Assembly: GCA_028713415.1 (NCBI GenBank)
Contig: JAQTOI010000003.1
Span: 1 to 60,962, forward strand
DNA: 60,962 nt
From: Candidatus Omnitrophota bacterium
Lineage (GTDB): Bacteria > Omnitrophota > Gorgyraeia > Duberdicusellales > 4484-171
Direction: 5' to 3'
The number at the start of each line of letters is the position of its first letter. Position 1 is the stretch's first letter. Under the pieces are notes generated by a model. That model searched no databases. It was not told the origin of the DNA and was given only the letters and a program-made list of their open reading frames with translations. Below, piece by piece: positions 1 to 60,962 of this stretch. Both the position numbers and the translations under genes were made by a program.

Positions 1-140
1 ATAAGTATCCAGGCGCAGATGAGAGAATCGAAATAAAAGAAAAATCAAGCTCTCCTGTTTCCTCAAACTATCTGCCTTCGTACAGCCCGCTTATATTTTC
101 TGGAATAAACTTAAACGACATTCTATCTGGCACGGGAGCG

Positions 141-3100: not shown

Positions 3101-6100
3101 GCCTTTTAGCGAAAGCATGGGTATTCCATGGCGGCAATTTTATCTTAATATGCAGGCATTCGAAAGGTTATTTTGTTTAAAAACGGATACACTCTATGAT
3201 CTTATCGGAAAGATCATAGCTGGTTTTAATACAGGCATAGAAGAGACTCATCACGGCCTGGTTCAAGCGGAAATGAGTCAGATCATTGGGATGGTAGAAG
3301 ATTTCTTTAGAATAAAGAAGGCTTTAAAGTCTGCGAGGTTTTTCAATTACGGCCGCGATTCCGGAAGAGGCACAAGCCTTGTGTTTGCGCCCGCGAAAAT
3401 TTCCGCTTCGAAGCTGATTTCTTCCCCGCTTTCAGCTGATACATTGGTAGAATTCACCAGAGAACAAATAGGTATCTATTCCGGGCTTTTCCATTTGCCT
3501 TGGCAGGAATATAACCCGGTTTATCTCCCTGTACAGCCTAGCGCTGAATCTAACGGTAAACAAAGCATTATCAGTCCGCTTGCGATTAAAGAAGGCATGG
3601 CTCTATTGGCTCTTGACCAGAGGCAGCCGGTCATCAATCCTTTAGTTATCGCTGGTGACTACTTTGAAGCAACTCGGCTTGATCCAAGAAAAGTCATAGC
3701 GGCAATATTGCCTCATGAAATCGGGCACAGCATATTATGGACATTAGGCAGGTCAATAGAAGGCTTGGGGACAATTTGGGATATAGTATCTGCCGAGTTA
3801 GATCTGCCCGAATTGTTACCGCCGGAGCAGCAAGCATTCAGCGGTCTGGGATTGAGCGTTATTTTCGGTGCAAGAATCTTGCGCCCAAGTTATGAAATAA
3901 TAAGGATACAAGATGTTAATATTTTGTATTATCACATTCGTGAAACTATTTGTAACGCAATAGGATTGCAGCTAATACCCAGTCACATTTTTAAAGCAAA
4001 GGATGCCCATCCGGATTATTCTAATCACGACACTTTATACGCGTATGCGCTTGAATACTACGGAGAACTTTTAGAAAAGATAATCGCTGTAGCTGATAAT
4101 TTAAGCCTTACTTCGGACGCCGCAGAGGCCGTTCCGACGTTAGCAAATGCCTATAACCCTTTTGAGGATGTTATTCTTGAAGACGGTTCAGCTCTTTGGT
4201 CAAAGTATTACTACCTTAGATTAGCCGTTATGGAAGCTTTCTTTAAAGACGCGCAATCGCTTGAAGGTCTTAATCCCGCACTTCTTAAAGAAATCGGAGA
4301 GTTAATCCGCGGCATAGGGGCCGCTATCGACAGGCTGATAGCAGCGTGGCCTAATGCGCAGGCGCGAAGAGAGAAAAAACTTTATAATGATCTAGTAGCG
4401 GCATTTTCCGAAACTCACGCGAACGCGCGTAAAATTGTTCTCATTCAGCCCCGCGATAAACGTCTTAGTGCTTTTTCGGATAAAAGAGTTTCAAGCCCGC
4501 TCTCAAATGGCGAAGCAATAGCCTTCAATAACCCGACAAATAGTTCAAACCCAACGCGCGGGCCTCCGGCGGATAAGGCTCACGAATTATCCTCTTCAAA
4601 TTCTTCAGAGGAATTAACCTCTAGCCCCGTACAAAACGGCCTGGTTTATAATCCGGGTTTAGCGACGATAGGGGGCCTGGCTAAGGTCACCTGCGGCTTG
4701 GCGATATCTTTAGCTAAGGCCGGCTACAGAGTCATTATTTTTACTCCCGGATATAGCCATCCAAAATATAACTACGGCCAGGTGCCTTCAACGCTTATCA
4801 GCGATACCAGAGATGTTAGTGTAAGCTTAGGAAGCAAACAGGAGAGGCTCACCATAAAAAAATTAGATTTAGGCCTTATTAGCATAGTTACGCTCACCCA
4901 TCCTGTCATTTTTGAACGGCCCTATGTTGACGCATTAAGAACTGAACAAGCAGTGTTATTTTCAAAGGGTTCACTGGATGTTATGACACAGCTAGGCTTG
5001 GTGCCGGAAATAATTCACGCCCACGACTGGATGGCCGGTCTGGTGCCCGCATATTTAACCGATACTCCCAGATACCAAGAATATTTTACAAACGCCGCTT
5101 CGTTATTTACTATTCATAATGCCTTGCACCAAGGATGGGTCGGCATGGATAATGCTACAAGAATCAGTGTTTCGCGGAACATAATAGAATTTAAAGATTC
5201 CGTCAATCTGATGAAAGCAGGCATAGTTACTGCTGACGCTGTAAGCACTGTCAGCCCTCGCTATGCCCAGGAGATACAGACTTCTGATTACGGTTGCGGC
5301 TTAGAAGCATTTTTAAAAACCAGAGGGGTTGTCGGAATTAATAATGGCCTCTGCTTAGATTGTAACCCAAAGACCGCGGATATCGCGGCCAATTTCAGCG
5401 TTGACGACGGAATTGAGGCTGTATTGCCTGCGAAGTTAGAAAACATGCAGGCCATTCAGGAAAGATTTGGGTTAACAAAAGATAGAAATAAGTTTCTCGT
5501 CGTCTTGGCAGCACGCCTGGATAGGCAAAAAGCAATAGAACTTCTGGTTGAAGTTATCCCCGCGGTATTAGGCAAATACACAGACGCGCAATTCGTCATA
5601 GACGGCCCGCAGTTCGCTGATCCGGCCATAGCCCAATTGCATACAATAGCGCAGAGGCAGGATTTTCAGGGAAGATTTGCGTTCCGGCCGGAGCAGGAAT
5701 CCAATAATTACAGCGTCCTTGCGGGAGGAACGCTAAACTTAGCATGGAACGCGTGGGCGCCATTTGATTTAGTCGCGCGTGAAGCTTCGCTTTTGGGAAC
5801 TCCTTCAGCGCTTAGGCTCACAGGAGGTTTAGCTGAGTTTGTTCCCTATGACGAACAAACAGGCGAGGGTGAAGCCTTTGCCTCCGATGAGTATAGCGCA
5901 AAAGCACTTCTTGAGGCAATTGAACTTGCGAGAGATACCTATTACAACCGGCCTTCACACTGGAAACTAATAGTCGAGCGCGGCATGCGTAAAGATTTTA
6001 CCTGGAAAGAATCGACATGCCGATATGTAGAGCTTTTTACGCGGATGCAAAGAACTAAATTCGGCAGAGCTCTACCCATAAACGGCCTGATAACGATAGT

Positions 6101-9100: not shown

Positions 9101-12100
9101 GATAGTGCGGGATGGCCATTATATAGAACACTTAGATGAGTTGATTGTTAAAGCGGATGATATACTCGCGCGATTAAATGATTTTTCTCATTCATCCGCG
9201 CAAGCCGGTTCACCTGCCATAAGCGTTTTAAATCCATTCCGGTCAGTATTATTTTTTACTCCAAGTGTAAGCGCTTCCATTGCTGGGAATACGGATACAC
9301 ACGGATTGAGAGGAACGCATCCTACTACGCCAAGGCTTCGCAGGACAAGGATGATCGCAGATGGAGGAAACACGGATGTAGAGGGATTAAAAAGAGGGTC
9401 GTCGCCGCTAGATTCACATTCTCGCGCGCTTGCTGTAAGGAATAGCCACCTTACTGATTTAGCAGGTAATTTTATGTTACACGCTTCCTCATCTGTGCCT
9501 GCTGATAATAATTGGGAAAAAATAGTTGATATTACTTTCCAGAAAAAAATTGCTGCTAATTATATTTGGCCGCGGCCTGATTCGGTTCCAATAGAGGAAG
9601 TATCGAATGCTATTAGCGGAAGCATTGGAACGGAGATGGAAGGCGAATTCCCGAGTGCTTTAGTATATCCCGCGGTCGATATCTTACTCGGCGACTTAAT
9701 TCCTAACTCTGTTGATGCTGCTTTTGAGGCGGTTGATGAAGGCCAACTCGCAAAGGATAAAGCAATGGTAAGGTTTATTCTTCTGGGCAATAAAGATAGA
9801 CACGTATTTAGAGCAGAATTATCGGATAACGGTATAGGTGTGCCGGCTTATATTTTTCAAAAATGGCCGCATTTAGAAGGACTACATTTAAGTGCAGCTT
9901 TAGGAGGAATAGTTTTAAGACAATTAACTACTAAACGCGGTAATAATCTTGGCCGATATGCGGGAAGACGTGGCCAGGGGGTAGTTAAAGTTTTAGCCAC
10001 GGCAAAAGATTACGGCCTTGCGATATCTATTGGATCTAAACGCCGGGGTGAAACGGCGTATATTTTCAGGCAATTGTCGGATGGAACAAGAAGCCTCATT
10101 CATTCTGATTTTAAACACGCGGGGACGAGGATTGTTATAGATAACATTATTCCCGAACGGGAAGTTCGTTTGGGTGCTAGCGAAATAATCGAGGCAATTC
10201 GGGCTACGGATCGTGATTATGGAAGCAGCCCGATAGTCGGAAGCACACAAATATTGATAAAAAATTTAGAGTATGGCATTGCTTTGACACCAAATTTAAA
10301 TCCCTGGAATATTGCCAACCAGGTTTATCATTTAAATATAGATGGTAGAAGCGTGGAAATCTCCAATTTCAAATATGTAAAGATAAAAATCGCGGATAAG
10401 GTTATTTATCTCGGCACACACCACAACGGCGCTTACTTCTTTACCTTGTTGTCTTTTAAGGAGGGTTTATTAAGCGGCAAAGAAACTTTTGCCCACATAG
10501 ACCAGCTTCATCATCCGGATAACGGGAAATTACAGGTTGTTCTGCCGTCACCGGATGAGGATACGAGTGCGCATCTTAGATGCCTAAGCACCCAATATCA
10601 TGCGGCTCAAGCGACTAACCGGCAAGCGGTTACCAGGACAAATTATGTAACCGCGTTAAAAAGTTTATTTCCCCAAATGCGATTTGTATTCTTGAGGGAT
10701 ACGGATAGGCCTTCTTTTGACTGGGGCGACATGAGCTTCGACTGGAGCGGTTCCGTATTTGACTTTAGACAATCGATAGAAGGAGGAATAGCGAGCGTGG
10801 ATTTAGATATAGTAGCTAAAAACCTTGACCGCGCAGATGCGCTTAGCGCATTACTAAACTGCATCGTAAAGATAGCAAGCCAGTGCAAACTTGTAATGAT
10901 TTTTACTTCCCCTGATTATTTAGCTCCTGCAGTCGCTACAGAAGCCGCAGAAATATTTGCCAGCGATCTTTTGCATGCGATTGAGGGTAATGCGAAAGGA
11001 TCTTTTGTGATTAACGCAAGAGAAGGAAGTTCGCCGGCAGCTATGCTAAACCGGCATTTTCTGGAACAGATGTCCGCTCCTCTAGCTGTATACGTTGAAA
11101 CTGAAAATAGGATAGCTACTGGTTATCCTTCTATCTGGGAGCATCTTATGCGCCAAAGTGACCAGCATTTGGCCGGCAGGATATTAGTATTGTTCCAATG
11201 GCGCAAGCAGCAAGGTTTTAAAGTCTTACCGCGCCTTGATTTATTAGTGCGGCAACTTTTGCCTCAAGATTTAAGTAACCTTTCAGAAAGTGACCAGATA
11301 AGTTGGGTTTTGAAATACAAGATACAGGAATTTATGGAATTATTCGGAATATTTACTTCTGATGTGGAAAGAGGCAGCACCGCGCAAATAGAAAATACCG
11401 GGCTTCGCGGTATGTCGGAAAATGCTGCCCAACAGATATATAGTGAATACAAGCAGGATGTTAGCGAGTTTATTTTAAATGTTTTGAAAATAGCAAGAGA
11501 CGTGGTTTTATTCCTGCGAAAAGCCCCCTTTATTGTTGAAATAGGCTGCTCAACCGGACGCAGCGCACACCTATATATACCCGATGCAAAAGGGATATAT
11601 CCCGGCCTTCGTTATGTCGGGACCGACATATTCAGGCCTAAGAATCTTGTTCTCGGAAAAGAAGAGTTTATTTTACATGATATACTGAAAAGCCCTCTTC
11701 CTTTTGGAGAAAAGCCGGATATTATCGTATTTACTAACGTGGACATGCATCTTTCACCTAGACACCATTATTCCCAAGATGGTTTTGACAGCGGGAGATT
11801 ACGCGCCTGGCGTAATATTCTGCAAAGCACCAAAGAAGGAACGCTTATCCTGGCAGGCAGTGCCAATTTTGCAGAACATAGGTATATAACAAGAAAGAAT
11901 AGAATCGTTAGAATTCAAACTCCAAGGGAAGCTATTGCGGTTATAGCAGAAATTAAAGGCACCTCTTCTTCTCCCGCGAAAGATATAGGATGGTCTTCTT
12001 ATGTTGATGCGCGTGAGTATTTTAATTTCGGTAGTGGAGAAGAAGGCTCTTCGCCTTCCGCGGCATCTTCACGTGCACTGGCGGCGTTTAACGTACAAGG

Positions 12101-15100
12101 CTCTTTTGATAAAGTTACCACAGTCAATACTAAATTGTTGCTGCCGCCAGATGTTCTATTCCAAAATATTTCTTCTCCGCTGATGATTAGGAATCCATAC
12201 GAACATCTTACGCAAAAAACACGCGGACCGCCAGCACTAAGCACTATACGCTATGCACAAATTATCAGATTTCCTCACAGGGTTGTTTCTTCACCAATCC
12301 AGCCATTATTATTTTTTACCCCAAGTGTAAGCGCTTCCATTTTGAAAAACGCGTCTGATTACGGATGGCGTGTTTCTTCTCCGGGAAATAAAGAATCATT
12401 GGCGAAACCTATGAATTTATCGGAAAGATGGATATTTGAGCTGGCACGTGATAGTGAGGGGGCCTCGCTTAGCCCAAGTCAAAGCGGGCCTGCCGCAGCC
12501 CTTCGATTCGTTTCAACTCACTCAAAACGCTCCGCAGCCCCCTTACTGGGACGCTCCGCAGCCGGTTTATCTATCGCCGGGCCTAGCTTGCCTCCGGAAG
12601 CAGAAGGTAGAAATCAACTTGGTGCATATGCGAAAAAAGCTATTGCGTTGAAAACACTTTACGATGATGCGCATAACAGTAGAATAACATATTTTTTAGA
12701 GACAACGAAAATGAGGCAAGCGGCGAAAATGGTTTTTAGTCATACTCCTTGCCTTGATTGTGTAAAAGGCGCAAAGGTTTTAGATTTAGCGATAGGTAAC
12801 GGTCTTGTGTCGGGGTTTGCTTTAGAGTATGGGGCAAATGAAGTTGTTGGGGTAGATATATCGCAAGGTATGCTTGTTTGGGCAGAGGAACGGTTGGGAT
12901 CTTATCGGAATAGCGGGCGTACTATACGCATGGTTCATTCAGATATTTTAGGCTTAAGCGATCGCCTTAGAGATGAACAAGGCCGGGTAGAGACATTTGA
13001 TATTGTAATTTTCGGTAATGTGCTTTGCTATTATGATTGGCATGTTCGTATGCACATAATCCAGGAATCCGTTAGTTTTCTTAAAAAAGGCGGGCGTCTG
13101 GTTACTTTATTCCGTAGTATTGATGAAGGCGGTACAACGATGGCAACGCGGCAGTATGAAGATTTGTTTAAAACTTCCGGATTACATCAGGTAGATAGTT
13201 ATATATGTAATAGGGAGACAGATGAGGATCTGGGATTAGAAGAAGGCGAACTTGAACTAGTAATAAATGAGAACGTTGTTGTTTGGGGGGACAAAAGCGT
13301 GTCTAGCCCAACCATGTCTTTCAATGCACAAAACATCTCTTTTGCAGGCTCATCACCGCTTAAACTTTTTAACGCGGAGCGCACAAATATAGCAGGAGTA
13401 CACGTGGTACCTCTGGGCGGTATTAATGGCCCGGGAGCAAGTTGTTTCTATGTAAAAGTCGGCACTACGAGATTCTTGCTTGACGCCGGCCAGGGTGTAG
13501 GAAATCAGAACTTTAGCCCACGGTTTGAGTTAATAGATGAAGGCGTTGATTTCGTGCTCATAAGCCACGCGCACCTTGACCATATAGGGTGTTTACCGGA
13601 AGTGATTTGGCTTTTTGGCAATGTGCCTATTTTCAGTAATTCCGACACCACGCAAAAAATCAAATTGATGTTAAAAGACCACATGGCAATAGTCAGCCGC
13701 ATGAAATTGGGGAGTTACCGGAAAAATGAGAGCAAGATTAGAAGGCTGATTAGAGATACGTTAAATAACAGGAGGACCGTAGAGAGGAATAAATATTATC
13801 AGTTCGCGCAAGATTTGAAAGTAATTTTTCAGCCTGCAGGGCATCTGACTGAAGCCGACACAATCATCATGGTCACACCCTACTGTAATGTCATGTATAC
13901 AGGCGATCTTTCCTGGGAGATAACCCGGACCGCGAGGCGTATACATATACCTGATGTCTCCATTGATACGCTTTTTAGCGAAGCAACCTATGGGAGCAGG
14001 TCCCATCCTGCTACACGCCAGGAGCGAGAAGAGGAGCTGGCGGTAAGAGTCAATGAAGTTATGGCAAGAGGAGGGATACTGCTAATTCCTTCAATCGCCA
14101 CACGCGTTTCAGAGCTCAGCTTTATCTTCGGTCATCATTTCAAGGCAGGTAATTTCAACTCTGAATTTACCGTTTATCTTGACGGCCCTCTTGCCAATAA
14201 AATGCTGGCTGTTGATAGAAGTAATATTAGGTGGATGCCGCAGGATACGATAGACCGGCTTGGATCATTCATCAGAAATAGTAAAATTCAAAAATTGGTG
14301 GCGCAAGATAGAGAGAATATATTAAGAAATGCTAGATGCGTGATCATCGCTACTTCCGGCATGCTTGTCCCGGGAACGCGCTCATACAGGCTCATGAAGC
14401 AAATCGCTTCTGACCCAAGAAACGCCATAGGCCTGAGTAATTATCAGGCTCGCGGAACAGTCGGAAGGCAGGTTAGAACATTTGTGGGCGGCGCGCGCAG
14501 AGGCGATTCTGTCGTTACCGATGAAGACAAGATTGTGATGAATGCCGATGTTTATGAATTCTCTTTTTCAGGGCATGCGGACGCCGGGGAATTACGAACC
14601 ATGATAAGCACTATCAACCCGGTAAGCACGTACTTGGTTCACGCAGAACAAGAGGAAAAGGATGGGCTTCTCTGGAGTTTATCAACAGGCTTGCAGTATC
14701 AAGGTAATATCGAAACACCCGAAATCGGTGAAGAAATAGAGGTGCAGTCATTATGGAAAGAAGCGCGCAGGGAAGCCTTTGACGCTACGCCTGCCGAGCT
14801 TGCTCCTGCTAAGAATTTAGAAATTAAACAGGAAGCCAGAGCCGTCCGCTCACAAGAAAGATTAGAGAGGATAACGCAGGAACAGATAGAGAGAAGCAGA
14901 CAGTTTCAAATCAGGGACGTTACGGAAATTATAACCGGCCTTTTTGGCTTAAGCGCGCAAGATAGCGGCATAGTCAGGCAGGCAGTAGAGCGGCTTGCGC
15001 AAGATGCAGGCGCGCAAAATAGAAACGCAGCCAATTTGCGGAGTGATTTCCAGACATTAGCCAGACAATATCGCAAAGAACAAGTTAGCGCCCAAGAGAT

Positions 15101-48100: not shown

Positions 48101-51100
48101 GGCCAAAAACGTGCTTCCTGGAGATTCACCGTGCGCATCAGGCCCTGTTAGTTCATCTGCTTCAGCCGGCAAACCGCAAAGTGTGCAATTTTACGGCTGC
48201 GGCACGCCTGAACGCATTCTATCAGCTAAAACATTGCCCAGCCCTTCGGAGTACCTCAGGGCGCCGACACATGGTGGCTTCAGCCCTCTGGCTTGGTTCG
48301 ACTACGCTCACCACGAGTCGGCAAGGGCGTCGTTGGACTCCAGCCCACCAATGGCAAATGGCAAAGGGCGAATGGCTGATAGCAATTCAAAGACGTCGCC
48401 GCAACGCGGCTCCGGCCCCGGAAGTATCCGGGACGTCGCAAATAGCTCCAGCCCCGCATCTGGCTCTGAGCAAAAAGCAAAAGAACAGCTCATCGTCCAG
48501 CTAAAAGAAACGCTTTTGCAGGTTCTTACCGCAGAATCAATAGCTCGGTTTAACGAAGATGATTTAATCGGTTTGGCGCTTTTTACCTTGGAGGACTTGC
48601 CGAGAGCGCAAAGGATAGAGCTTATCGGCGCGGCATTAGAAGCTCACAGTATGGACCGTCAAAATGCGGAAAATATCCTCATTGCCTTGTGTGACGCAAA
48701 TTCTTGTGGAAGGATAACGCCTCTTTTTGTAGCTGCAGGTATGCCTGAAGTTTACGAAAGTTCATGGCCGACGCAGAGAGAGGACACCTGGATAGGAGAA
48801 GAAGCACGGGACGTAATTAGGATGGCAATGCTTAATGTTTTTACTCAAATATTTAATTATTTTCATATTTATCCGGATAATCAAAAAACAGTTGTTGATG
48901 TCGGAGCCCGGCGCGGATGGCTTGAGAAATTATTGGGCCAGGAATGGCAAAAGGTTATAACCTTGTTTGACAAAAATGCTTTTTATCTTCTCGAAGCCCG
49001 TGAACAAAGCCTAGGAAAGAATTATATAACCGGCAGTGTTTATGAGTTGGCAAAATACTTACGCGATATAAATTTAATTCTTTCTCTGGATACATTTGAT
49101 ACCTTTTTGGATTTAAGCTGCGCCGCAGCGCAGTGCGCGGCAGCGCTTTCTCCGGCTGGATTAATTATTGTTGTCAACGGCCCGCCAGTTCAGATTGAGC
49201 CGCTTGTCCAAGAGTTGGCTGAACAGGGAATAGTTTATTCTCCTTATTGCGTCGAATTTTTTGATGCGGAAGAGAAGCGCCTTGCTGCTGAAGAAGCTTA
49301 TCATCAATGGAAAAATCTTCCGGAAGATACCCCCTCAGATTTAGCACGGAGTGTCTTTAGCCAATTTTTAGATATCCGCGATAGGTTAGCATTCGATAAA
49401 GATGAGTATTTTCAGGCTAAATTGATACGCCTGTTAAAAATGGAAGGCTTAGAAATCCTGCTTCCTTCGAAAGCTGCACAAAGAGGAATAATGGGAAAAT
49501 ATATAGGCGCAAAAGAAGAAAGGCACAGAAAAGTTTCGCCGACGGCAAATTGCTTTACCTTTTACAAAGGCAGCGGGCACTTGGGATTTGACCCTAAGAT
49601 TCCCTTGGGCAAGGTTGTTGAAGCGGTTGGCTTAAGAGTGGTTATGGCAAGAAAACCTGAACCGTCTCAGCCAAGCAGGAGGCCTTTAAGCTCAAGCTCC
49701 CCGTCAGTAAATATGACTAATCAAATACTCCAGCCCAACTTTCCTGCGGAGTTCGCCGGCCGCGTAGGTTATCAGATACTGGTTGACCGTTTTGCTAATG
49801 GTGATAGCTCAAATGACCCAACCGTTCTTGACACAATGGACGATATTGGGGGCTGGCACACCAGAGATTGGAATAAGCCTTGGTATGAGTATGACCAATG
49901 GGAGATGGACTGGGCAAAAGCAAACCGGAAACACCCCTTAGAGATTATTTGGAAACGCCACTACGGAGGGGATTTACAGGGCGTATTGGACCGGTTGGGT
50001 TACTTAGCAGAATTAGGTATCGGTTTTATTTATTTTAATCCGCTTTTTTGGGCGCCTTCACATCATAAATATGATTGCCGTTCTTTCCATCACATTGACC
50101 CCACCTTTGGCCCTGACCCCAGGGGTGATAAAGCCTTGATGTTAGAGGAAAACCCGGTTGTTCCTGCTACTTGGAAATGGACCAGAGCTGATAAATTATT
50201 TTTAGATGTTATTGAAGCAGCGCATTCAAGAGGAATTTTGGTAGTATTGGACGGTGTGTTTAATCATACTAGCCGGTATTCCTTTGCCTTCGCAGATATT
50301 TTGAGCAATAAACAGGATTCGCGGTATGCCAGCTGGTATCAAATTACGCATTGGGATAGCGAACTGGCCGATGGTTTTGACTATTGGAAATGTCTTGGTG
50401 ACAAATCTTTGCCCGAAGTCAGGCGTGACGGGGATTCTTTAGACTCCGCTTTTAAAGAATATGTGTTTAATAGTATTACGCGTTGGATGCAGCCGGGAGT
50501 CGTCGCCGGACGCAAGCGCCAAGGCGTTGACGGCTGGCGGATTGATACAGCAGATCGCCTTCCGCATGTATTCCTTAAAGAATTACACGCAAAAGTAAAG
50601 TCATTAAATCCTGGCGCGATAATTATCGGAGAAGTCTTGGCTGTTAGCCCGGAGTATCTTCGAGGAGACGAATGTGATTCCTTAACAAACTATTCTTGGC
50701 TTTTTGCCCTGCAGGAGTTTTTCATCAACCAGGAGAGCCGCATCTCACCCAGTCAATTTGCAGGGCTTATGCGCGATTTGTTTACCGCCTATCCTTCACA
50801 AGTACAAGATTATATGTTGAACTTCTTAGGTTGCCACGATACAGAACGTATTATCAGTGCGATTCGCAATCCAGACATGGCTCGACGCGATTGCGGTAAA
50901 CATTACAACAATTCAAAAGTTCTTCATAACCCCAGTTATGACATTGGGCCTGCAAGCGAGCGGGATATTAAAATCCAGCAGTTACTTGTTTTATATCAAA
51001 TGACCGCACCCGGTATGCCGGTAATTTATTATGGAGATGAACTGGGCTTACCCGGAGCAAATGACCCTTGCTGCCGCGTTCCCATGCCCTGGCATATTGT

Positions 51101-54100
51101 TGATAGAGGCGCAAATCCATTGCACAGTTTCTATAAAAAGATGATTGCTATGCGTAACCAATCGCTTGCCTTGCAACGCGGGACATATGAAGTAGTGCGC
51201 ATTGATGATGAGCGGCAGCTCTTGGCATATCGCCGTAGTTACGAAGACGAAAATGTTTTTGTAGTGATAAATAATAGCGATAGCGAACGGATTGTTTCAT
51301 TACCGCTCAATTCAATATCTGGTATCCAACCTATTGTTAATCTCGTTGATGATAGGCGATACCAGGTGCAGGATGAAAGAGTAACTCTTACTTTAGCTGA
51401 CCGCAGCGGAGCTATTTTATCTGCCCTAGGCTGTCCAGCTAAAAGCTCATCCCCCTCGGCGCGAGATTTATCAATGGCAGTACATTTTTACGGCCGCGGC
51501 ACGCCTGAACGCATTCTATCAGCTAAAACATTGTCCAGCCCTCAGGTAGCCCCCCGCGCCCCGCCGCAGGAAAACGCCGTACCTAATCGTTCTTTTTTCA
51601 ATTCCTTAACTTGTGCATCTTCCAGTTCCTTGGAAGGGGCGCTTCGCAATCAAACTAACCGGCCGCAATGGCGCAATCAAGTTAAAAGAATCATACAGAT
51701 TACTGGCTGGACCGGTACGCTTATAAATTTGGCGATTACCCTTCTTTTCCTACCACAGATTTTACCTCTCTACATACCCTTAGCATTGGAAGGTTACGCG
51801 TTAGCTCTATATTTCTTCTGGCTGAGCCGGTATAAAGATTCCCGTTTATTCCAGATGGCGATGGCTGTTATCGGCCTTGCGTTTTTCTTTGGAGTTTTTC
51901 ATGTGGCATTACCGTGGGTTATTCCTGCCGTCAGAAACAGCGCAGAACGCACATTTTCTGAAGTCGCATTGATTATCGCGGCAAGATTTGCTCTTATGCT
52001 CCCTGCCATTTTTGCTTCCAAATATTTATGTACAAAATATTTTAAGTTTTTAACACCCAACCCGAAAGCTAATTTTGAATTCAAGTGGAAAGAGGAGCTA
52101 TGGAAATCATTTAAATGGGCGTTTGTCGGCGGAATAATCGCGGGTTATTACATTTCCTATGTAGTATACAATTTTCTTTCGGTAAATATCGATATCGGAT
52201 ATACAAGTTATATCCCGTTTTTGGAGGGAAATCTTTCCATATTGGCATTGAAGGCCGCCTTTGACTTGGGTCTGGCTACTATTTTCGTGCATCATGTCCT
52301 TACGTTAGTGGTGGGCCCGGCTTTTTGCGAAGAGATGAATCTTTTAAAGGAATGGGGTAAGGGCAGTGGCAGCTTAAAGAAGTACATTAAAAAACAATAC
52401 ACTATAGCGTCCCCTTTGAGTTTCTTATTCTGGTATCCGGCTGTTTTTCTTCTTTGGTATCTTTTCCCGCATTTATCACTGGGCATGATACTTACGCAGG
52501 CGGCATTTACCGTTGTTTGGACCGTAATTTATGAACGGATTGTGCAATTCTGGAAGAATGGAGATAATTTTGTAGATGTCGAATACAAAGAAAAAGCTTT
52601 AGGCAAGCAAAGAGCTGCTTCTTCACCTTCGGAAGATTTGTCCGGCGACAAGCTTGGGGCAAGTCTGGAAGCTGCCGCTTTATCATCGAAATTTAGCGGC
52701 ATAAATTTTTCAGAAAAAAAGTTCAGACTTATTGATAAAGTAATGTTAGAGATTGACGCAGAGATCCGGCAGGAGCATCCTGAAAAACTCCTGGCAGCAA
52801 ATCTCGATGTTCAATATCAAAGAACACCGTCGCTATACGCTGTTGCAGTAATTGAGGAATTAGTTAAAAGAAAATTGATGGCTTCGCACAATAAGTTCGG
52901 CGATGTGGGCGCAGGCACGGGCGCAATGCTTATCTTGGTCGTTGCTTTGACCCAGGCCGGGGAGGCAATAGGCATAGAACCTGATGGCTACCTGCGCCAA
53001 AAAGGCCGGGAGGCAATATTACGCCTTCAGAAAATGGGCGTTATCGATGAATCCCGCATAAGGTGGATTCCAAAGGGCTGGGAGGATTCGACCGATATAT
53101 TAGGCCAGCTCGATGCCGCATATTTATATTCTCCGGTTCAAGCCCCGGATCACTGGGCGATTGACGCCAAAGTGATACGTAGTTATATGAGAACAAATGC
53201 ATATCTGCGTGTTGCCGGTGTCGGACAAAGCGGTCCGGGCGCACTTAATAATTTTTCTTGCCTCGCACAAACTTCAGCTATCGGTTCGGAGGCCCTCACC
53301 AAAGCCCACCGCGTAGGCGAGTTTTGGTTAGGCCGCCAAGCGCCGGGCGCCAGCTCGCCAAATCATAATGTGCCTCTTTCAGACGGCATGGAAGTTTTTA
53401 GAAAAAGGGTGCAGCAGGCAACAAGAAGAAACGCGGAAGGGGAGTGTGGGCAACAAGAGAAGATAGATTCTTTGATTATGCAATTGCTTACTGGCAGCGA
53501 GAAACAACACTATGATGCGCTTGGGGAGTTAGTTGCAATCAGCGGATCTTCGCGTAAGCCTTTTTTCGGGCTGGGTGATACAAGCCTTAGCTTTAAAGTT
53601 CGCAAATCCCTGGGTGAAGCGTTAGGCAGCTTGGTAGGTAAAAGAATGATTCAGGTCTGCAGAAGAATTTTTAATGACGAGCGCATAGCTGGTGAAATCC
53701 GCCAAACTGCAGCAAGGTATCTGTTTAGCCTTGGTAAACGCGTTAAACCAAGAATGATGCGCACCAGCTTCCCGGTAGCAGCCAGGTCCAGCCGTTATAA
53801 TATAGTATGCGTATGTAAAGGTAATCTTTACCGGGGTCCCTTTTTGGAATTTATGATACGCGATTACCTAAAAAGAAGGAAGTGGGGAAATTATTTTTTA
53901 GTTCGTTCTGCCGGAACTTCGGCGTGGATAAATAGTGTAGATCGTGAATATGAACTAAAAAAGCAAGGGGAAATACAGCTTAGCCTCTATCGGCAGGTAA
54001 GCGTGACGGAATCGATGCAACAATTTTATAGTGGTATTTCTCCTCGCAGGTATTTGTCTGAGCGTATGTATAAAACTGCAGATGTAATATTAACAGTTAG

Positions 54101-57100
54101 CCCGGATATTAGCGCCGTCAAAAAATCTATTTTAGTTACCGAATTCCTGCCAGAATACCACCGGTATTTTCGTCAGCCTATTCCCGATTCCGTATGCCCC
54201 GATTTCAATCTGCTTATTGATTTATACTCCAGCTTATTAAGGTCCGGTTTAGGCAAGGCTATTCAGCAAGCGGTTGGAGAGATAAAGCAAGCAAAAAAAC
54301 AATACAAAGGAAATGAAAACAACAGGGATCAGGCCTCAAAATTAGAAATTGACCGCGCCAGCTCGCCGGAACAAAGAAAGCCCCTGGTTATCTGCGGTGT
54401 GCGCGTTAGCCCAGATATTGATGAAGAAGGAATCAAAAAATGGATAAACAGGATTTTAGGTAAGTTTCCAGTGCAACAGCATGATGTTTTTATCGGTTTT
54501 CCATCGCATCCTTACATAAGCGATATAACTATTGAAGGATTGCCTATTGGTTGCGTGGTTGGCTATAACGGCCTAACCGGTAATAGACAAGAGCGCGAGT
54601 CAGATTATGTTATCTATGATCATAAAGGCACTAGAAGTGTATTCTTCATGCAATATGGCTCTGCAGTCGATTTAGATAAGAGAGCGGTATCAGTTGGTTC
54701 GTGGCGGCTTATTGTTCCTTTGTGTGCGGAGGCGATTGCTGTTTGCATGATGGATACAAAAAGTTTATTGTGCGACGCTGCGTTCATTCCGATATACACT
54801 TTAGATAGGCATGGTGACATGTATACACAGAGATTTTATAGCGCTATAAGGAAACCGGTTATGGGTATGGATCAAGGGTTGCAGAGAACTTGGCGTGTTA
54901 TTACGCCAAAAGGGATATATGATTATCAAGGCCTTTACAATTGCGCAGTTGCTTTAACTATAAATTCAGACGGTCGCAATACGCTTGGAATTTTCCGTGA
55001 AGCGCAAGCCCGCGCGAGAAATCCAGAAGATAAAACTTCAAGCCCATCAAGCTCTACTATGGCTGACCCTTGGCACCCAAATGACCGGGGTTATGAAGTA
55101 ATGGCAGAGGCTTGGTTTAGAGCTTTAACTGACCCTGAGGCCGCAGTAATCGCTAAGTTATTAACGGGGACGTCGGCACGCTCCGCGAAAGCTGCGCAGA
55201 CCTCCAGCCCCGTGCCGGAAAATACAGGAGGGACACTTCCCGACGGGATTTTATCACCCACACCTTTAAAGCAATTTGTTTTTAATCCTGCAGAGCATCA
55301 AAACGATAAGCGTCTTGCGGGGGCTGTGATAGAGTGGTTCGGCGTTGCGGGAGATTTTAATTTATGGAAGCCGCGCGAATGCGATATCAGCAGAGTTTCC
55401 CAACAAGGTAAATACGAGATAACAATCGCTTTATCGCAAACAAGCCGTTATAAGTTTGTTATTAAGTTTTTGGGTAAAGCGCACCTTGAGTGGTTTACTG
55501 ATATTCATTCTCCCTTTAGAGATAAACGCGGCAACAGTTTTGTTATAGCTCAACCGTCGGAAGTTTGCCCCCATTCATATTATAGCGGAGGAATCGCAGT
55601 GCATAGAAGTAATGTGCCTGGGCTTAGCGCGGGGCAGGTGGTAATGAGTGTCCGCTTAGCTTCAGATATTATAAAAGATAGTCAGCAACTTTTAGTAGTA
55701 AGGAGAAGGCTTTGTGAATGGTATGATTACCAAGGGCAGCCACCGGTGAGGCACAAACACGATTTATTGCACTCAATATTACTGAGTAAGCTTGATTGCG
55801 GGCACGAAGTTATGCAATATTACTTTAAGAATTTCCCATGCGCTCTATATTTTGCAATTAGCGATGCAGCCGACAATGGCCGAGACAATATTGATGTAGA
55901 AGGAATAGCGGTAGTAACGTATAGGCCAGAAGGCATATCGGTAGATTATTTAGAGATTAAGCCGCAAAATAGGCTCGGCCCAGAACGATCACGCTTTGTC
56001 GGTGTAGGCCACCAGCTCATTTTTCATATTTTCCATAGTTTACTCAAAGAATCTCACGGTTTTCGTGCTAACCTCAATACTGATACTTTACTCAGCGATG
56101 GAATTGTAGCCGGCCAGTGGTACAGCACCGCTGAAATGGAGGAACGCGTGGTAGCGCGCGTAAGAAGGACATTGAAAATTTTTAATGAAAACGTTTATTC
56201 GCGCGATTCATTAGGAAATCAAGCAAGAGATGTATTGGCAGGGTGCCTAGATGACGCGATGCGATTGCGCACAGCGAGTTCGTCCCTCCTCAACAAGATA
56301 AGAGTTTCTCCACAAGGACATGCGATACTCTCATCGGCCTCTTTAACGTTTAACACGCACGAAAGAAGCGCATTAAGCTATAGGCTTTTTAGAGATCCTC
56401 ACAGTAGTAGCAGCCCAAGCCAATTGCCGAATATACAGAAGGTTGGCTCAAGTCCTCAAACCCCTGATGCTTCAAGTCCTCTTGACGGCAATCAAGCTCG
56501 TCAGCCCAACGCCGGGCAGTTGCCGCACGTAGAATTACAGTTAACCAACTATCAAGGAAGATACAAAGTGGTTCAACCACAACCCCAAGCTTTAGCCGCC
56601 AATGGCCAGCTCAGGGGCCACCTGGACGGTTTATTAGGCCTGCTCACCACGTATATGCCAAACGGCCCTCCTTTTACACTTATAATGACTGAAAATGCCG
56701 CAGGCATTGATCATACCCGTACTTCTCATATCCTCGATACTACCATAGTCGTTACTGCACCGGCAAGCAGAAGATTGACCGTACATTATTCATTTTTTGA
56801 TTTTCCTATTACAATCCAGGCTGATATTCTACGTATCCGTTTAAGTTACTTAAATGGTTTAACAGAGCCATATATTTATCAAACCGGACTTTCTCATTTC
56901 GCAACATACCGCAGAAATAATCCCCAGTCTCCGGATGAATTAACCAAATTTTTAGAAGAGGCAGCAAGATACGGTTATATATTGCCGGATATGTACCGAA
57001 TTACTTTAGAACAATTACAAAGGCTTCATTTTGGCGACTTAGACTTCCAGCTTTTTGTTGCCGAAGGAAATCATTTTCAGGCATACGAGAAACTTGGCAG

Positions 57101-60100
57101 CCATCTTATAACTACAGGTGGACAGCATCTCGGTACATATGTAGCAGTGTGGGCGCCTAATGCTAAAAGCGTCTCGGTTATCGGAGATTTTAATCAATGG
57201 GGTGTTACCTACAGCCATGTACTCTCGAATTATTCAGGTATCTGGCACGGTTTTGTTCCCGCACTGACTAAGGACAAGCGTTATAAGTACCGCATAACAG
57301 GCGCTGACAACGTAGTGCGTGACAAAGTAGACCCCTATGCTTTTTTTAATGAACATCCAAGCCGTGGCTATGAGCAAAGCACTGCATCACTTGTTTGGAA
57401 TTTAGATTACCAATGGCAGGATGCTGCTTGGATGAACGCCAGGCGTGCAACACAGTCGTATGGCAAACCTATTGCTATTTATGAAGTTCATCTTGGTTCA
57501 TGGATTCGCAGGCCGGATAACAGCCAACTCAGTTATCGGGAGATTGCTGAGCCGTTAGCTGAATATGTGAAGGGTATTGGTTTTACTCATGTTGAGTTCT
57601 TACCCATAACAGAACATACCTTTGAAGGTTCCTGGGGTTATCAGGTGAGTAATTACTTTGCGCCAACTTCGCGTTTCGGCACCCCCCAGGACCTGATGTA
57701 TCTTGTGGATTATTTACACCAGCAAGGTATTGGGGTTATTCTTGACTTTGTCCCTGCGCATTTCCCTAAGGATACGCAAGGATTAAGCCGCTTTGACGGA
57801 ACAGAGCTTTACGGCCATGCTGACCCGGCTAAGGGAGAGCACCCGCATTGGGGCACCTACATATTTAATTATGGCCGCAATGAAGTGCAAAGTTTCCTTA
57901 TCAGCTGCGCTTTGTTTTGGCTGAAAAAATATCATTTTGACGGCTTGCGTTTTGATGCTGTTGCTTCCATGCTTTATCTTGATTATGGTAGGGATGGAGG
58001 GCCTTGGGTTCCAAATAAGTATGGTGGAAACCAAAACCTTGAGGCAATAGAATTTCTATGGAAGATAAATTCAAGAGTTTTCAGCGAAGTGCCCGGAGTT
58101 TTAACTATTGCTGAGGAATCAACTGCCTGGCCCGGGGTAACTGCGCCGGTGGCCATAAGCGGATTGGGATTTTCCCTAAAATGGAACATGGGTTGGATGC
58201 ATGATACGTTACAGTTCTTAAGGACGGATCCATTTTTCAGGCACTATGACCTGGGCCGTTTTACCGGTATCTTAAATTACAGCTTTGACGAAAGATTTCT
58301 CCTTGCGCTTTCTCACGATGAAGTAGTGCATATGAAAGGTTCATTGCCCAACAAAATGCCTCAGGAGGATTGGAGGAGATTTGCCAATGTGCGGCTGCTC
58401 TTTGCCATCCAGTATGGTTTTCCCGGAAAAAAACATATGTTTATGGGTATGGAGTTTGGCCAATGGCGCGAATGGAACCATAACCAAAGCCTTGACTGGT
58501 TTCTTTTGGATGATTGGGATTCCTGGCATGCAGGTATGCTTAGATTAGTCAGTGATCTTAACGGTTTTTATCGAAGAGAACCTTCATTATATGAACGGGA
58601 TTTTGACCGCAGGGGCGTTGAAGTAATTAACTTTGATTCTGATAATACTGTTTTGTGTATTGGCCGCAGGGGTAAAAATCCAAACGAGATGCTTATTTGG
58701 GTTTACAACTTTACTCCGATGGTGAGATACGATTACTGCGTAGGTGTACCTTGGCCTGGCATATGGCAGGAGGTATTTAATAGCGATGCTCAAATTTACG
58801 GTGGTTCAGGAATCGGCAATCTGGGCGGTGTAGATGCCCGGGAGGTTCCTTTCCACGGACGTCCTTATTCAATAAATCTTACGCTCCCGCCATTAGGGGC
58901 GCTCGTGTTCAAAGTAGTACGCGCCTCCAGTTCTCTGTTTTCGACAAGGCCGTTTCCGGGCTCCAGCCCCCCAATGGCAAATGGCAAAGGGCGAATGGCT
59001 GATAGCAATTCAAAGACGCCGCCGCAACGCGGCTCCGGCCCCGCGCAAAAACCATCAAGGCCTCTGATTATAGAAACCGTAGTGGTTGATCAACATGAAC
59101 TTGAGATACATAAACGGGAAGAGCGTTTAGATATTGTGGGAAGAGCCGTTAATGTTCTGCATACTAAATCGCCTTACTGCGGTTATTTTGGTTTTATGGA
59201 TGACAGAGGAAGGGCAATCGTCCTGCACTATTTTATTATTTCTTTTATTGAAGACGTTATTGTAAGGGCGCTGGAAAACAAAGTTCCTCTTATTTGGGAG
59301 AAATGGGAAGGCAAACCCGTACAAAGATTGGTATTAAGAAGAAAAGTCGGAAAATTTATCCGAAAGACACTATCCAAGTTTACTTTGGATGATATTCATC
59401 AATTTCTTGTAAATAGTACCATTGACCATGAAGTAAGGCACATTGAAATAGAACGAGGCCATTTTATCCCCAATAAAGGATTTGTTAGCCATGTAATTGC
59501 CGATAATGGAGAGGAATCCAGAGCCTTTATCGCCAAAGTCGCCGGAGAAATAGATTGTATGTTAACGGGTTATGCCGATAAATACCCTCCGCAACTTGAA
59601 TTCCTGGTCGACATTGATATGTTAGCATCCCCCTCGAATGCGGTAGGGTATTTAGCTTCAGCTATGCTGATGAAAGAGCTGGTTGGCGTAGATTTTGTAA
59701 GTTATGAGCAGTGGGATGAGATTAAAGCTTTCGCGGCCATCGAACAATTACGCTCTTGTTTGGATAGGTTATTATTGGGCGGATTTGATGTAACCATGTT
59801 CAGGTGGAAAGCCGCCATGGTAAAAGAAAAAATTGGCGCAGTATCTAATAGAAATGGGCGTTCCTCAAGTCCTTCAACCCAACGAAAAGCTGACGCTGTA
59901 AAGAGTAAACAGATCATAAATCTAATGAGATTTAACAATCGGTTGCGGCAGGATAACGCCAGTTCACCCCTAAGCATTCAAAGTAGCTATTATCCTGCAA
60001 CTCTGTTTGGAAAAAACGTACCTGCTGACCAAAGGCAAAGAGAAAATTTTATGTTCTATCTGCGCCAGGCCGGAAAAGAATTAAATACGGATTTTGATTT

Positions 60101-60899: not shown

Positions 60900-60962
60900 A
60901 TGAAAATGAAGAGGTATATGTGGGCCCAGCAGCAGTTGAAGATGAGATCGCTACCAGCAGTC
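60900..60962 (+). CDS. Possible 5' end of a downstream ORF (truncated by the window edge)
   Basis: ATG at 60900, 6 nt after the giant ORF's TAA, and open for all 21 codons to the window end ('MKMKRYMWAQQQLKMRSLPAV'). No clear Shine-Dalgarno sequence. Too short to evaluate. Confidence 0.2.
   Translation, partial: MKMKRYMWAQQQLKMRSLPAV

Follow-up and report, generated by a model that had tools for sequence, protein, structure and literature searches.

The locus described here raises a plain question: are more than 60 kb of DNA without a stop codon really one gene, and if they are, how is the product of such a gene organised? Omnitrophota genomes commonly contain giant open reading frames (ORFs), from tens of kb to more than 100 kb long, which raise questions of organisation, of single-chain status and of function (West-Roberts 2023; Seymour 2023; Nielsen & Lui 2026). 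The stretch that was analysed, referred to below as the window, comprises 60,962 nucleotides (nt) of contig JAQTOI010000003.1, almost all of which is occupied by one ORF. In our judgement the window probably holds the 3′ part, 60.9 kb long, of a single genuine giant gene, most probably from Omnitrophota, that encodes a membrane-tethered, non-repetitive multi-enzyme megaprotein. As a giant gene it fits the published Omnitrophota giant ORFs that are already known; what appears to be new is a delimiter, the tripeptide Ser-Ser-Pro (SSP), which lies between the modules of the protein.

Extent and coding character of the frame

The giant ORF (nt 3-60893, + strand) consists of 20,296 sense codons followed by a TAA. 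In a stop scan of all six frames, + frame 3 contains a single stop, the TAA at nt 60891-60893, and is open from nt 3 to nt 60890; each of the remaining five has 795-1665 stops, and the longest run without a stop in them measures 606 nt. The sequence-only reading of the window had proposed one frame of about 20,300 codons ending at this TAA, with nothing above 186 codons in the remaining frames, and both statements are confirmed, the largest ORF outside + frame 3 being exactly 186 amino acids (aa) long. With a base composition of 44.5% GC the stop probability is 0.059 per codon, that is, one stop per ~17 codons, and the probability of meeting 20,296 stop-free codons by chance is estimated from base composition at ~1e-534. 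The window begins inside the open frame; the ORF therefore lacks its 5′ part, and the 60.9 kb are a lower bound.

The codon-position composition is uniform along the ORF. The GC content of the first codon position (GC1, 0.48-0.56) is higher than that of the second (GC2, 0.36-0.43) and the third (GC3, 0.36-0.45) in every one of the twenty-one 3-kb blocks, and codon position 1 is also rich in G. The same earlier reading had taken the frame to be coding over its whole length and to carry ordered catalytic motifs of unrelated enzyme families. This agrees with the codon-position signature, with the 18 ordered domains described below, of which the first begins at nt 4656 (a glycosyltransferase of family GT5) and the last ends at nt 58922 (the branching enzyme GlgB), and with the delimiter motif, which extends over the whole ORF. 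The tRNA scan found no tRNA in the window and the Rfam scan no Rfam family.

Repetition is scarce at both the DNA and the protein level. Tandem Repeats Finder returned three trivial 30-nt arrays only, and self-BLASTP of the giant protein gave almost no internal repetition. The direct repeats in the DNA are short and diverged, the longest measuring 103 nt at 91% identity and the next 89 nt at 82%, with a further family of 38-55-nt elements at 63-80% identity, and for this reason there is nothing in the locus that would make an assembler collapse or mis-join it. The concern voiced earlier, that repeats in the linkers could mark chimeric joins, finds no support in the sequence: such repeats do exist, but the longest has only 103 nt at 91% identity. 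The 91%-identical linker pair (SSPPMANGKGRMADSNSK...) lies at nt 48318-48420 and 58941-59043, after the kinase-like module and after GlgB, and the 82%-identical pair (HFYGRGTPERILSAKTL-SSP) at nt 48183-48271 and 51480-51568. These two near-duplicate pairs, the longest DNA repeats in the window, may be the outcome of recent gene conversion; if the assembly has a problem, it would plausibly lie only there. Beyond the TAA, an ATG in the same frame (nt 60900-60962, + strand, MKMKRYMWAQQQLKMRSLPAV...) starts another ORF 6 nt past the stop and leaves the window; this may be a separate gene, or the continuation of the giant ORF broken by a single stop.

The Ser-Ser-Pro motif and the modules it separates

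SSP is by far the most enriched tripeptide of the giant ORF, with 62 copies where 4.8 are expected (13-fold), and its consensus is [A/S/G]-S-S-P-[L/S/A/V]. All copies are read on the + strand between nt 48 and nt 59969 (first motif at nt 48-56, last at nt 59961-59969). Their first nucleotides are 48, 1215, 1320, 2268, 3420, 4491, 4620, 6150, 6987, 7497, 8502, 9399, 10224, 11028, 11967, 12048, 12171, 12288, 12375, 13302 and 13350 in the first part of the ORF; 15165, 15261, 15927, 16167, 18885, 18936, 20184, 20634, 23010, 24225, 25518, 29115, 29208, 29436, 31713, 32781, 32877, 34875, 35643 and 36861 in the second; and 39384, 41556, 42702, 44328, 47112, 48339, 48447, 49695, 51447, 51534, 52620, 53352, 54360, 55038, 55203, 56409, 56448, 56472, 58962, 59865 and 59961 in the third. 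This spread of one motif over the entire ORF argues for a single evolutionary unit. A mere Ser/Pro-rich composition of the linkers was considered as the source of the motif and rejected, since the permuted or related tripeptides PSS, SPP, PSP, TSP and STP are not enriched and shuffling of residues within 30-aa windows produced 7.3 SSP on average and never more than 18. The 62 copies are encoded by 43 distinct 9-mers, and SSP is therefore selected at the level of the protein and is not a DNA repeat.

The location of the motif is equally restricted. None of the 62 copies falls inside the core of a recognised domain, where 14.3 would be expected (P ~1e-7), and of the 34 domain edges 13 have an SSP no more than 30 aa away, against 5.7 expected (P ~0.001). 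The flanks of the motif are poor in hydrophobic residues (0.276 vs 0.35; none of 3,000 random sets was as low), and the depletion also holds for the 29 copies situated in regions without Pfam matches. Cutting the protein at every SSP gives 63 segments, 43 of which have at least 100 aa (100-1,199 aa, with a median module of ~310 aa). Each recognised domain is contained in one segment, two domains share a segment only once, and the segments are almost all unrelated to one another; 26 of the delimited modules are dark. The motif itself may serve as a hinge or mark a place of modification or cleavage.

A longer form of the linker, SSPxxxFGSLKTAxxxPP (DNA families D1/D2, 63-80% identical), was observed eight times between nt 24781 and 36772. 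Its spacings range from 831 to 4332 nt and narrow to 831-1119 nt (~280-370 aa) from nt 31.7 kb on. Within this region the GC content is lower (0.40-0.41) at 32-38 kb.

The recognised domains and their catalytic state

Domains were assigned using Pfam (E<=0.01), PDB-sequence and NCBIfam searches, with aa numbered from nt 3, and all features in this section lie on the + strand. In all, 18 recognisable domains of unrelated families are arranged in order in one frame; the Pfam matches cover ~17 distinct domain types, none of which occurs more than three times. A looser Pfam scan of the dark regions (E<=0.5) gave nothing credible besides a weak second GT5-like stretch at aa ~5722-5829.

The clearest module is the 1,4-alpha-glucan branching enzyme GlgB (CBM48 + GH13 + Alpha-amylase_C, nt 57033-58922, aa 19011-19640; PDB GlgB E=1e-204). 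It scores 853 bits against a cut-off of 577 for NF008967 and 789 against 464 for TIGR01515, keeps GH13 regions II-IV intact (GLRFD, AEES, LALSHD) and is 55-58% identical to ordinary bacterial GlgBs of many phyla. By these scores and motifs it is a bona fide, canonical branching enzyme, and it is the only module above equivalog cut-offs; the other enzyme modules are divergent superfamily members rather than equivalogs. GlgB is followed by a C-terminal tail (nt 58962-60890, aa 19654-20296) of three SSP-delimited segments that has no match beyond aa 19690. Proteins of ~1,200 aa with GlgB units were considered as sharers of this tail and discarded, as they turned out to be tandem double-GlgB proteins; the tail is an orphan. 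In that tandem family (P0002-P0018, P0021, P0022, P0026, P0058) a degenerate N-terminal unit is ~30-37% identical to the window GlgB and a canonical C-terminal unit ~50%.

The glycogen/starch-synthase-like module (GT5+GT1, nt 4656-6050, aa 1552-2016; PF08323 E=4e-50, PDB GlgA E ~1e-33) has a non-canonical active site. An Ala (NAWAPFDL) stands where E. coli GlgA has its catalytic E377, which explains why the best PDB match of the module is the E377A mutant, and ATIGGL takes the place of KTGGL, so that the lysine (K15) is absent. The equivalents of H161, R300 and K305 and the fold are retained. At 259.8 bits the module stays below the TIGR02095 cut-off of 328.45 for the GlgA family, and it is probably a non-canonical or inactive synthase domain.

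Three further modules belong to the alpha-glucan enzymes. The neopullulanase/cyclomaltodextrinase-like GH13 module with a C-terminal beta domain (GH13b, nt 49698-51413, aa 16566-17137; PDB E=2e-74) has the full D/E/D triad (WRID, GEV, CHD). The CBM48 + GH13 alpha-amylase-like module (nt 39783-40862, aa 13261-13620; CBM48 E=4e-7, PDB 4gkl E=3e-21) shows GH13 regions I (DVVLNH) and II (GFRAD). In the GH77 4-alpha-glucanotransferase-like module (nt 44400-45572, aa 14800-15190; PF02446 E=9e-55) the RIDH nucleophile motif and a GEN(IG) acid/base motif can be recognised, the assignment of the third catalytic Asp is uncertain and the scores are below the MalQ equivalog cut-offs. A HAD-IA phosphatase (nt 15273-15887, aa 5091-5295) has all four motifs (DLGGV, SN, KPDP, DD) intact and in YihX-like form; its closest matches are the YihX glucose-1-phosphatase and the phosphatase domain of epoxide hydrolase 2, and its score for NF006991 glucose-1-phosphatase (73.5 bits) is under the cut-off of that model.

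Enzymes of other kinds are found on the same chain. A metallo-beta-lactamase/beta-CASP ribonuclease (nt 13395-14693, aa 4465-4897; closest to aCPSF1/FttA/CPSF73, PDB E=2e-37) keeps all seven motifs (D, HAHLDH, AGH, GD, SEATYG, SGHAD, VHAE) and scores 203 bits with TIGR03675, below the cut-off of 580. We noticed that its best scores are with models of archaeal aCPSF1/FttA and type VII CRISPR Cas14 and not with bacterial RNase J, and that it carries no N-terminal KH domains. An S-adenosylmethionine (SAM)-dependent methyltransferase lies at nt 12765-13112 (aa 4255-4370; PF13649, PF08241 and PF08242, E 1e-10 to 1e-11) and a second methyltransferase-like domain at nt 48873-49202 (aa 16291-16400; PF13489 E ~1e-4, under its cut-off). 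The blocks of the SGNH/GDSL hydrolase (nt 46380-47045, aa 15460-15681; GDSH, GTND, DDWH) are kept, as is the CX5R loop (CKGNLYR) of a domain resembling low-molecular-weight (LMW) phosphotyrosine phosphatases (nt 53802-54242, aa 17934-18080; PF01451 23.8 bits). A degenerate protein-kinase-like domain (nt 47415-48038, aa 15805-16012; PF00069 28.5 bits, below the 31.7 cut-off) has the HRD Asp replaced (KELKP) and no DFG. Judged by their motifs, the GlgB, GH13b, beta-CASP, HAD and SGNH modules look catalytically competent, and the GT5 and kinase-like modules may have taken on a binding or regulatory role after loss of catalytic residues.

Three copies of a ~230-aa family for which Pfam has no model, here called Domain X, were found at nt 10230-10982 (aa 3410-3660), nt 31935-32612 (aa 10645-10870) and, in shortened form, nt 34980-35492 (aa 11660-11830). 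The family is characterised by the motifs THHxxA, HIDxxxHPDN, NYVTAL, SVDLDIF and MIFTSPG. An AlphaFold (AF2) model built from a 16-sequence alignment reached a pLDDT of 89 and retrieved, with Foldseek, the peptide arginase OspR, agmatinase and formiminoglutamase, all at probability 1.0. The predicted structure thus matches an arginase/ureohydrolase fold, and the invariant His/Asp columns of the alignment fit a metal site. Outside the giants, members of this family are mostly stand-alone proteins of ~250 aa. A CxxCxxCC (putative Zn/Fe-chelating) domain lies at nt 33837-34352 (aa 11279-11450).

A Kyte-Doolittle scan revealed ~8-9 credible transmembrane (TM) segments in the 20,296 aa, five of them in one module. 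The first predicted helix (nt 120-176, aa 40-58) is preceded by no K/R in 15 aa and followed by six K/R in 15 aa. The positive-inside rule would then place the stretch after it (GT5, methyltransferase, beta-CASP, HAD) in the cytoplasm, and the charge distribution suggests this orientation. The strongest predicted helix lies at nt 35757-35813 (aa 11919-11937, Kyte-Doolittle value 2.5). The polytopic membrane module (nt 51558-52586, aa 17186-17528, 5-8 helices) is homologous to two copies in another large protein, P0001, with 27-32% identity. Its AF2 model from 3 sequences was unusable (pLDDT 44).

Relatives, rival explanations and proposed role

Homologs of the ORF-specific modules were found in a small number of large proteins. 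A 1,200-aa dark stretch, searched exhaustively with HMMER against 1.84 billion representatives, gave only 49 matches, mostly stand-alone ~250-aa Domain X or CxxCxxCC proteins and a few large ones. An exact 49-mer of the window was absent from the GTDB species genomes and the JGI metagenome contigs, and degenerate-pattern scans of these collections with a 5,000-aa dark stretch and the Domain X alignment found no relatives; a word-indexed homology search with the 5,000-aa query missed even GlgBs, and shorter queries found GlgBs and no giant ortholog. P0001 (5,410 aa, Ca. Omnitrophica; L001 10001-26233) shares the membrane module, P0139 (7,094 aa) and P0179 (2,673 aa, partial), both from Ca. Omnitrophota, share Domain X, and in P0031 (Ca. 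Omnitrophota, partial, filling its contig) a GlgB is embedded in a longer ORF. The large named relatives of these modules are all proteins from metagenome-assembled genomes of Candidatus Omnitrophota/Omnitrophica. The likeness to Omnitrophota/OP3 giant ORFs to which the sequence-only reading had pointed is thereby upheld, the named large relatives (P0001, P0031, P0139, P0179) all coming from that group and the published giants being proteins of the same type.

Several of these relatives carry delimiters of their own. P0179 has 13 SSP where 0.9 are expected, in the same sequence context, and they bracket methyltransferase, Domain X and TPR modules. In P0001, P0148 and P0173 (5.4-6.2 kaa, thousand aa) a different motif, RSE[L/M/V/A]R, recurs periodically with 12, 18 and 14 copies, respectively, ~250-400 aa apart and between Pfam domains, and in P0001 it stands ahead of both copies of the membrane module, at the place taken by SSP in the window ORF. 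The delimiters that frame homologous modules thus differ and are specific to the protein. The 20 ordinary genes neighbouring P0001 show no enrichment of RSE, and no delimiter was found in P0176 or P0031. The tripeptides HIA and GIT, which are enriched in P0139, were tried as delimiters and rejected because they stem from a 31-aa tandem repeat (...GITxxxHIAxIxxSSR...), a long array of which was observed at aa ~3980-5050. The main texts of West-Roberts 2023 and Nielsen & Lui 2026 contain no mention of SSP, linkers or polyproteins, and full-text literature searches combining Omnitrophota with polyprotein or RSExR strings returned nothing relevant; a module-delimiter grammar appears to be undescribed in the literature searched.

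The window ORF can be compared with giants that have been described in print. Seymour et al. 2023 reported ORFs of more than 20 kb in most genomes of several Omnitrophota classes, poorly conserved and domain-poor (PMC10066038), and West-Roberts et al. 2023 reported 46 genes of more than 90 kb and defined ‘Archaeovorins’ by GT5/GT1, methyltransferases, glycoside hydrolases, peptidases, NUDIX, HEAT/TPR and SecA-like domains and many TM helices (bioRxiv 10.1101/2023.11.21.568195). Like the Archaeovorins, whose type is the 39,678-aa protein of Velamenicoccus archaeovorus LiM, the window ORF is a single frame of tens of kb, mostly unannotatable and poorly conserved between genomes, with GT5/GT1, SAM methyltransferases, glycoside hydrolases and HAD domains on one chain, scattered TM helices and Omnitrophota relatives. 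Their size criterion is >90 kb or >=30,000 aa, against which the 60.9 kb and 20,296 aa of the window ORF are a minimum, and, unlike in them, no lytic transglycosylase was detected in the visible 20,296 aa. Nielsen & Lui 2026 catalogued 5,761 proteins of at least 10 kaa, 94% of which have a TM helix or signal peptide; the commonest domains of their largest class, ‘multi-enzyme metabolic clusters’, include PF08323, PF00534, methyltransferase and HAD (bioRxiv 10.64898/2026.06.07.730766). With at least 10 kaa, many Pfam families, none of them dominating, and minimal internal paralogy, the window ORF falls under the definition of this Class 1, with which it also shares the PF08323+PF00534 sugar module, a methyltransferase/HAD module, a membrane anchor and uniqueness at the sequence level; it answers to the Archaeovorin description in part. 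The class rests on Pfam content, and its paper makes no mention of delimiters between modules. GlgB, GH77, GH13/CBM48 and beta-CASP, all present in the window ORF, are absent from the main text of both West-Roberts 2023 and Nielsen & Lui 2026. Fused glycogen enzymes of ~1-2 kaa (GT5+GH77, GT5+GH57, GT5+GT35, PGM+GT5, tandem GlgB; P0002-P0018, P0122-P0131) have the same families covalently linked; they consist of two or three domains, with a GT5 only ~30% identical, whereas the window ORF spreads these families over 55 kb among dozens of modules.

The explanation we favour is that the megaprotein acts as a membrane-tethered scaffold, which would hold many activities in cis, in fixed stoichiometry and close together. 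The chain consists of ~43 distinct modules, roughly 150-1200 aa in size, joined by short hydrophilic linkers, each with an ordered SSP that may serve as an inter-module hinge or a recognition site. Its alpha-1,4/alpha-1,6-glucan set comprises the GlgA-like GT5, GlgB, the GH77-like module, the two further GH13 modules (one with CBM48) and the YihX-like phosphatase, and beside it stand the beta-CASP RNase, the methyltransferases, the SGNH hydrolase, the three ureohydrolase-fold domains and the LMW phosphotyrosine-phosphatase-like and pseudokinase-like domains. An intracellular alpha-glucan or general metabolic scaffold is favoured over an extracellular coat because enzymes acting on SAM, RNA and sugar phosphates suit the cytoplasm and alpha-glucan enzymes act on cytoplasmic glycogen.

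A number of points weigh against this explanation. About 75% of the giant protein has no detectable family and the alpha-glucan modules are a minority; all enzyme modules but GlgB fall below curated family cut-offs, and the GT5 module lacks two canonical catalytic residues. The cytoplasmic orientation comes from one helix only, and the alpha-glucan enzymes lie beyond later candidate TM helices. The window ORF has ~8-9 TM helices against 42 in the LiM protein (dozens are typical of Archaeovorins), and the HEAT/TPR, NUDIX, SecA-DEAD and C39/S8 peptidase domains of the Archaeovorins were not detected in the visible 20,296 aa, the N-terminus being outside the window. As to the organism, no taxonomic marker gene is present in the window, and the Omnitrophota affiliation is drawn from a handful of distant relatives.

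The first alternative to the scaffold is a bacterial polyprotein, a single chain cut at or near each SSP by a cognate protease to release ~43 proteins. Viral polyproteins (picornavirus, flavivirus, potyvirus) offer a parallel, being encoded by one long ORF with unrelated modules and a short recurring motif that differs between lineages; unlike them, the window ORF is cellular, has an order of magnitude more modules and no protease domain found in the window, and its cleavage is hypothetical. That the ordered motif lies at module boundaries and never in a domain, and is selected at the protein level, counts in favour of a polyprotein, but the motif might just as well work as a hinge, as a helix N-cap or as a place of modification. 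Proteolytic processing of giants was proposed by West-Roberts et al., with information on the cleavage points lacking (bioRxiv 10.1101/2023.11.21.568195), and no known protease specificity for SSP was met in the literature searched; moreover, a Pro right after the scissile bond blocks many proteases. No protease domain was detected across the visible 20,296 aa, and the enzyme might come from the N-terminus outside the window (as C39/S8 in other giants) or elsewhere in the genome, and the relatives with RSE[LMV]R would be cut by a protease of other specificity. The bracketing of homologous modules by SSP here and by RSExR in P0001, together with the lack of RSE enrichment in the ordinary neighbours of P0001, is in keeping with this proposal. 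Since a switch between SSP and RSExR is expected of a site that co-evolves with the factor recognising it, we regard processing as a possibility to be entertained, although a doubtful one, and it would refine rather than exclude the scaffold explanation. In a more general and likewise tentative form, the giants could be ‘operons in one reading frame’, in which protein-specific delimiters (SSP here and in P0179; RSE[L/M/V]R in P0001, P0148 and P0173) are recognised by a co-evolving processing factor and units of ~300 aa are released or individually regulated.

The function published for ‘Archaeovorins’, proposed in print for V. archaeovorus LiM and other Omnitrophota giants, is extracellular attack or adhesion by a displayed chain that binds and degrades surface polysaccharides of host or prey. 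The several glycoside hydrolases, the CBM48 modules, the SGNH esterase and the presence of some TM helices would be consistent with it, but the identifiable carbohydrate enzymes target alpha-1,4/alpha-1,6-glucans and not cell-wall polymers, and Pfam scans found no lytic transglycosylase, peptidase, dockerin, lectin or adhesin repeats. The beta-CASP RNase, SAM methyltransferases and HAD phosphatase need cytoplasmic substrates, the first TM helix is positive on its C-terminal side, and TM candidates number ~8-9 in 20 kaa. We consider such a role unlikely for the window ORF.

It is very improbable that the locus is an operon which has merely lost its stop codons and whose modules are translated separately from internal ribosome-binding sites and starts. 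The module sizes are gene-like (median ~310 aa), and RSE[L/M/V]R in the relatives has a superficial likeness to an in-frame AGGAG with a start codon behind it; in-frame starts preceded by a Shine-Dalgarno-like sequence, however, follow 6 of the 62 SSP while random sites give 9.3, SSP is followed by fewer Met than expected, and the absence of stop codons would be left without explanation. RSELR was rejected as a DNA-level Shine-Dalgarno/start signal because its codons are diverse (CGN/AGR, TCN/AGT, CTN/TTR).

An assembly artefact, in which linker repeats had brought unrelated fragments together or consensus errors had erased real stops, has hardly any probability in our view. The short repeated linkers on which it would depend (103 nt at 91%, 89 nt at 82% and the 38-55-nt family at 63-80%) have neither the length nor the similarity needed to collapse an assembly, the codon-position composition stays uniform over the twenty-one 3-kb blocks, one SSP grammar extends over the whole ORF, and random joins would not leave a frame open over 20,296 codons. 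A megasynthase of the polyketide synthase or non-ribosomal peptide synthetase type, or a repeat-built adhesin, to which gene length alone points, can be set aside as next to impossible, since motif and Pfam scans gave no KS, AT, ACP, C, A or PCP and since no tandem domain copies (Ig-like, cadherin, RTX, dockerin, TSP3) were found and Tandem Repeats Finder and self-BLAST were negative.

With the membrane-tethered scaffold as the favoured explanation, the window ORF stands out as an unusually legible giant: its GlgB is canonical and one GH13 is intact, a GH77 is present, and catalytic residues have been naturally substituted in its GlgA-like module. This legible set argues for an intracellular alpha-glucan role and not for attack on cell walls. 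SSP, or RSExR in the relatives, provides an objective way to split giants into modules usable for structure prediction, and the delimiter makes the question of processing testable through its prediction of protein termini at the delimiters. If the polyprotein grammar is true, the cleavage points of such giants would be predictable from sequence, the very information that West-Roberts et al. lacked.

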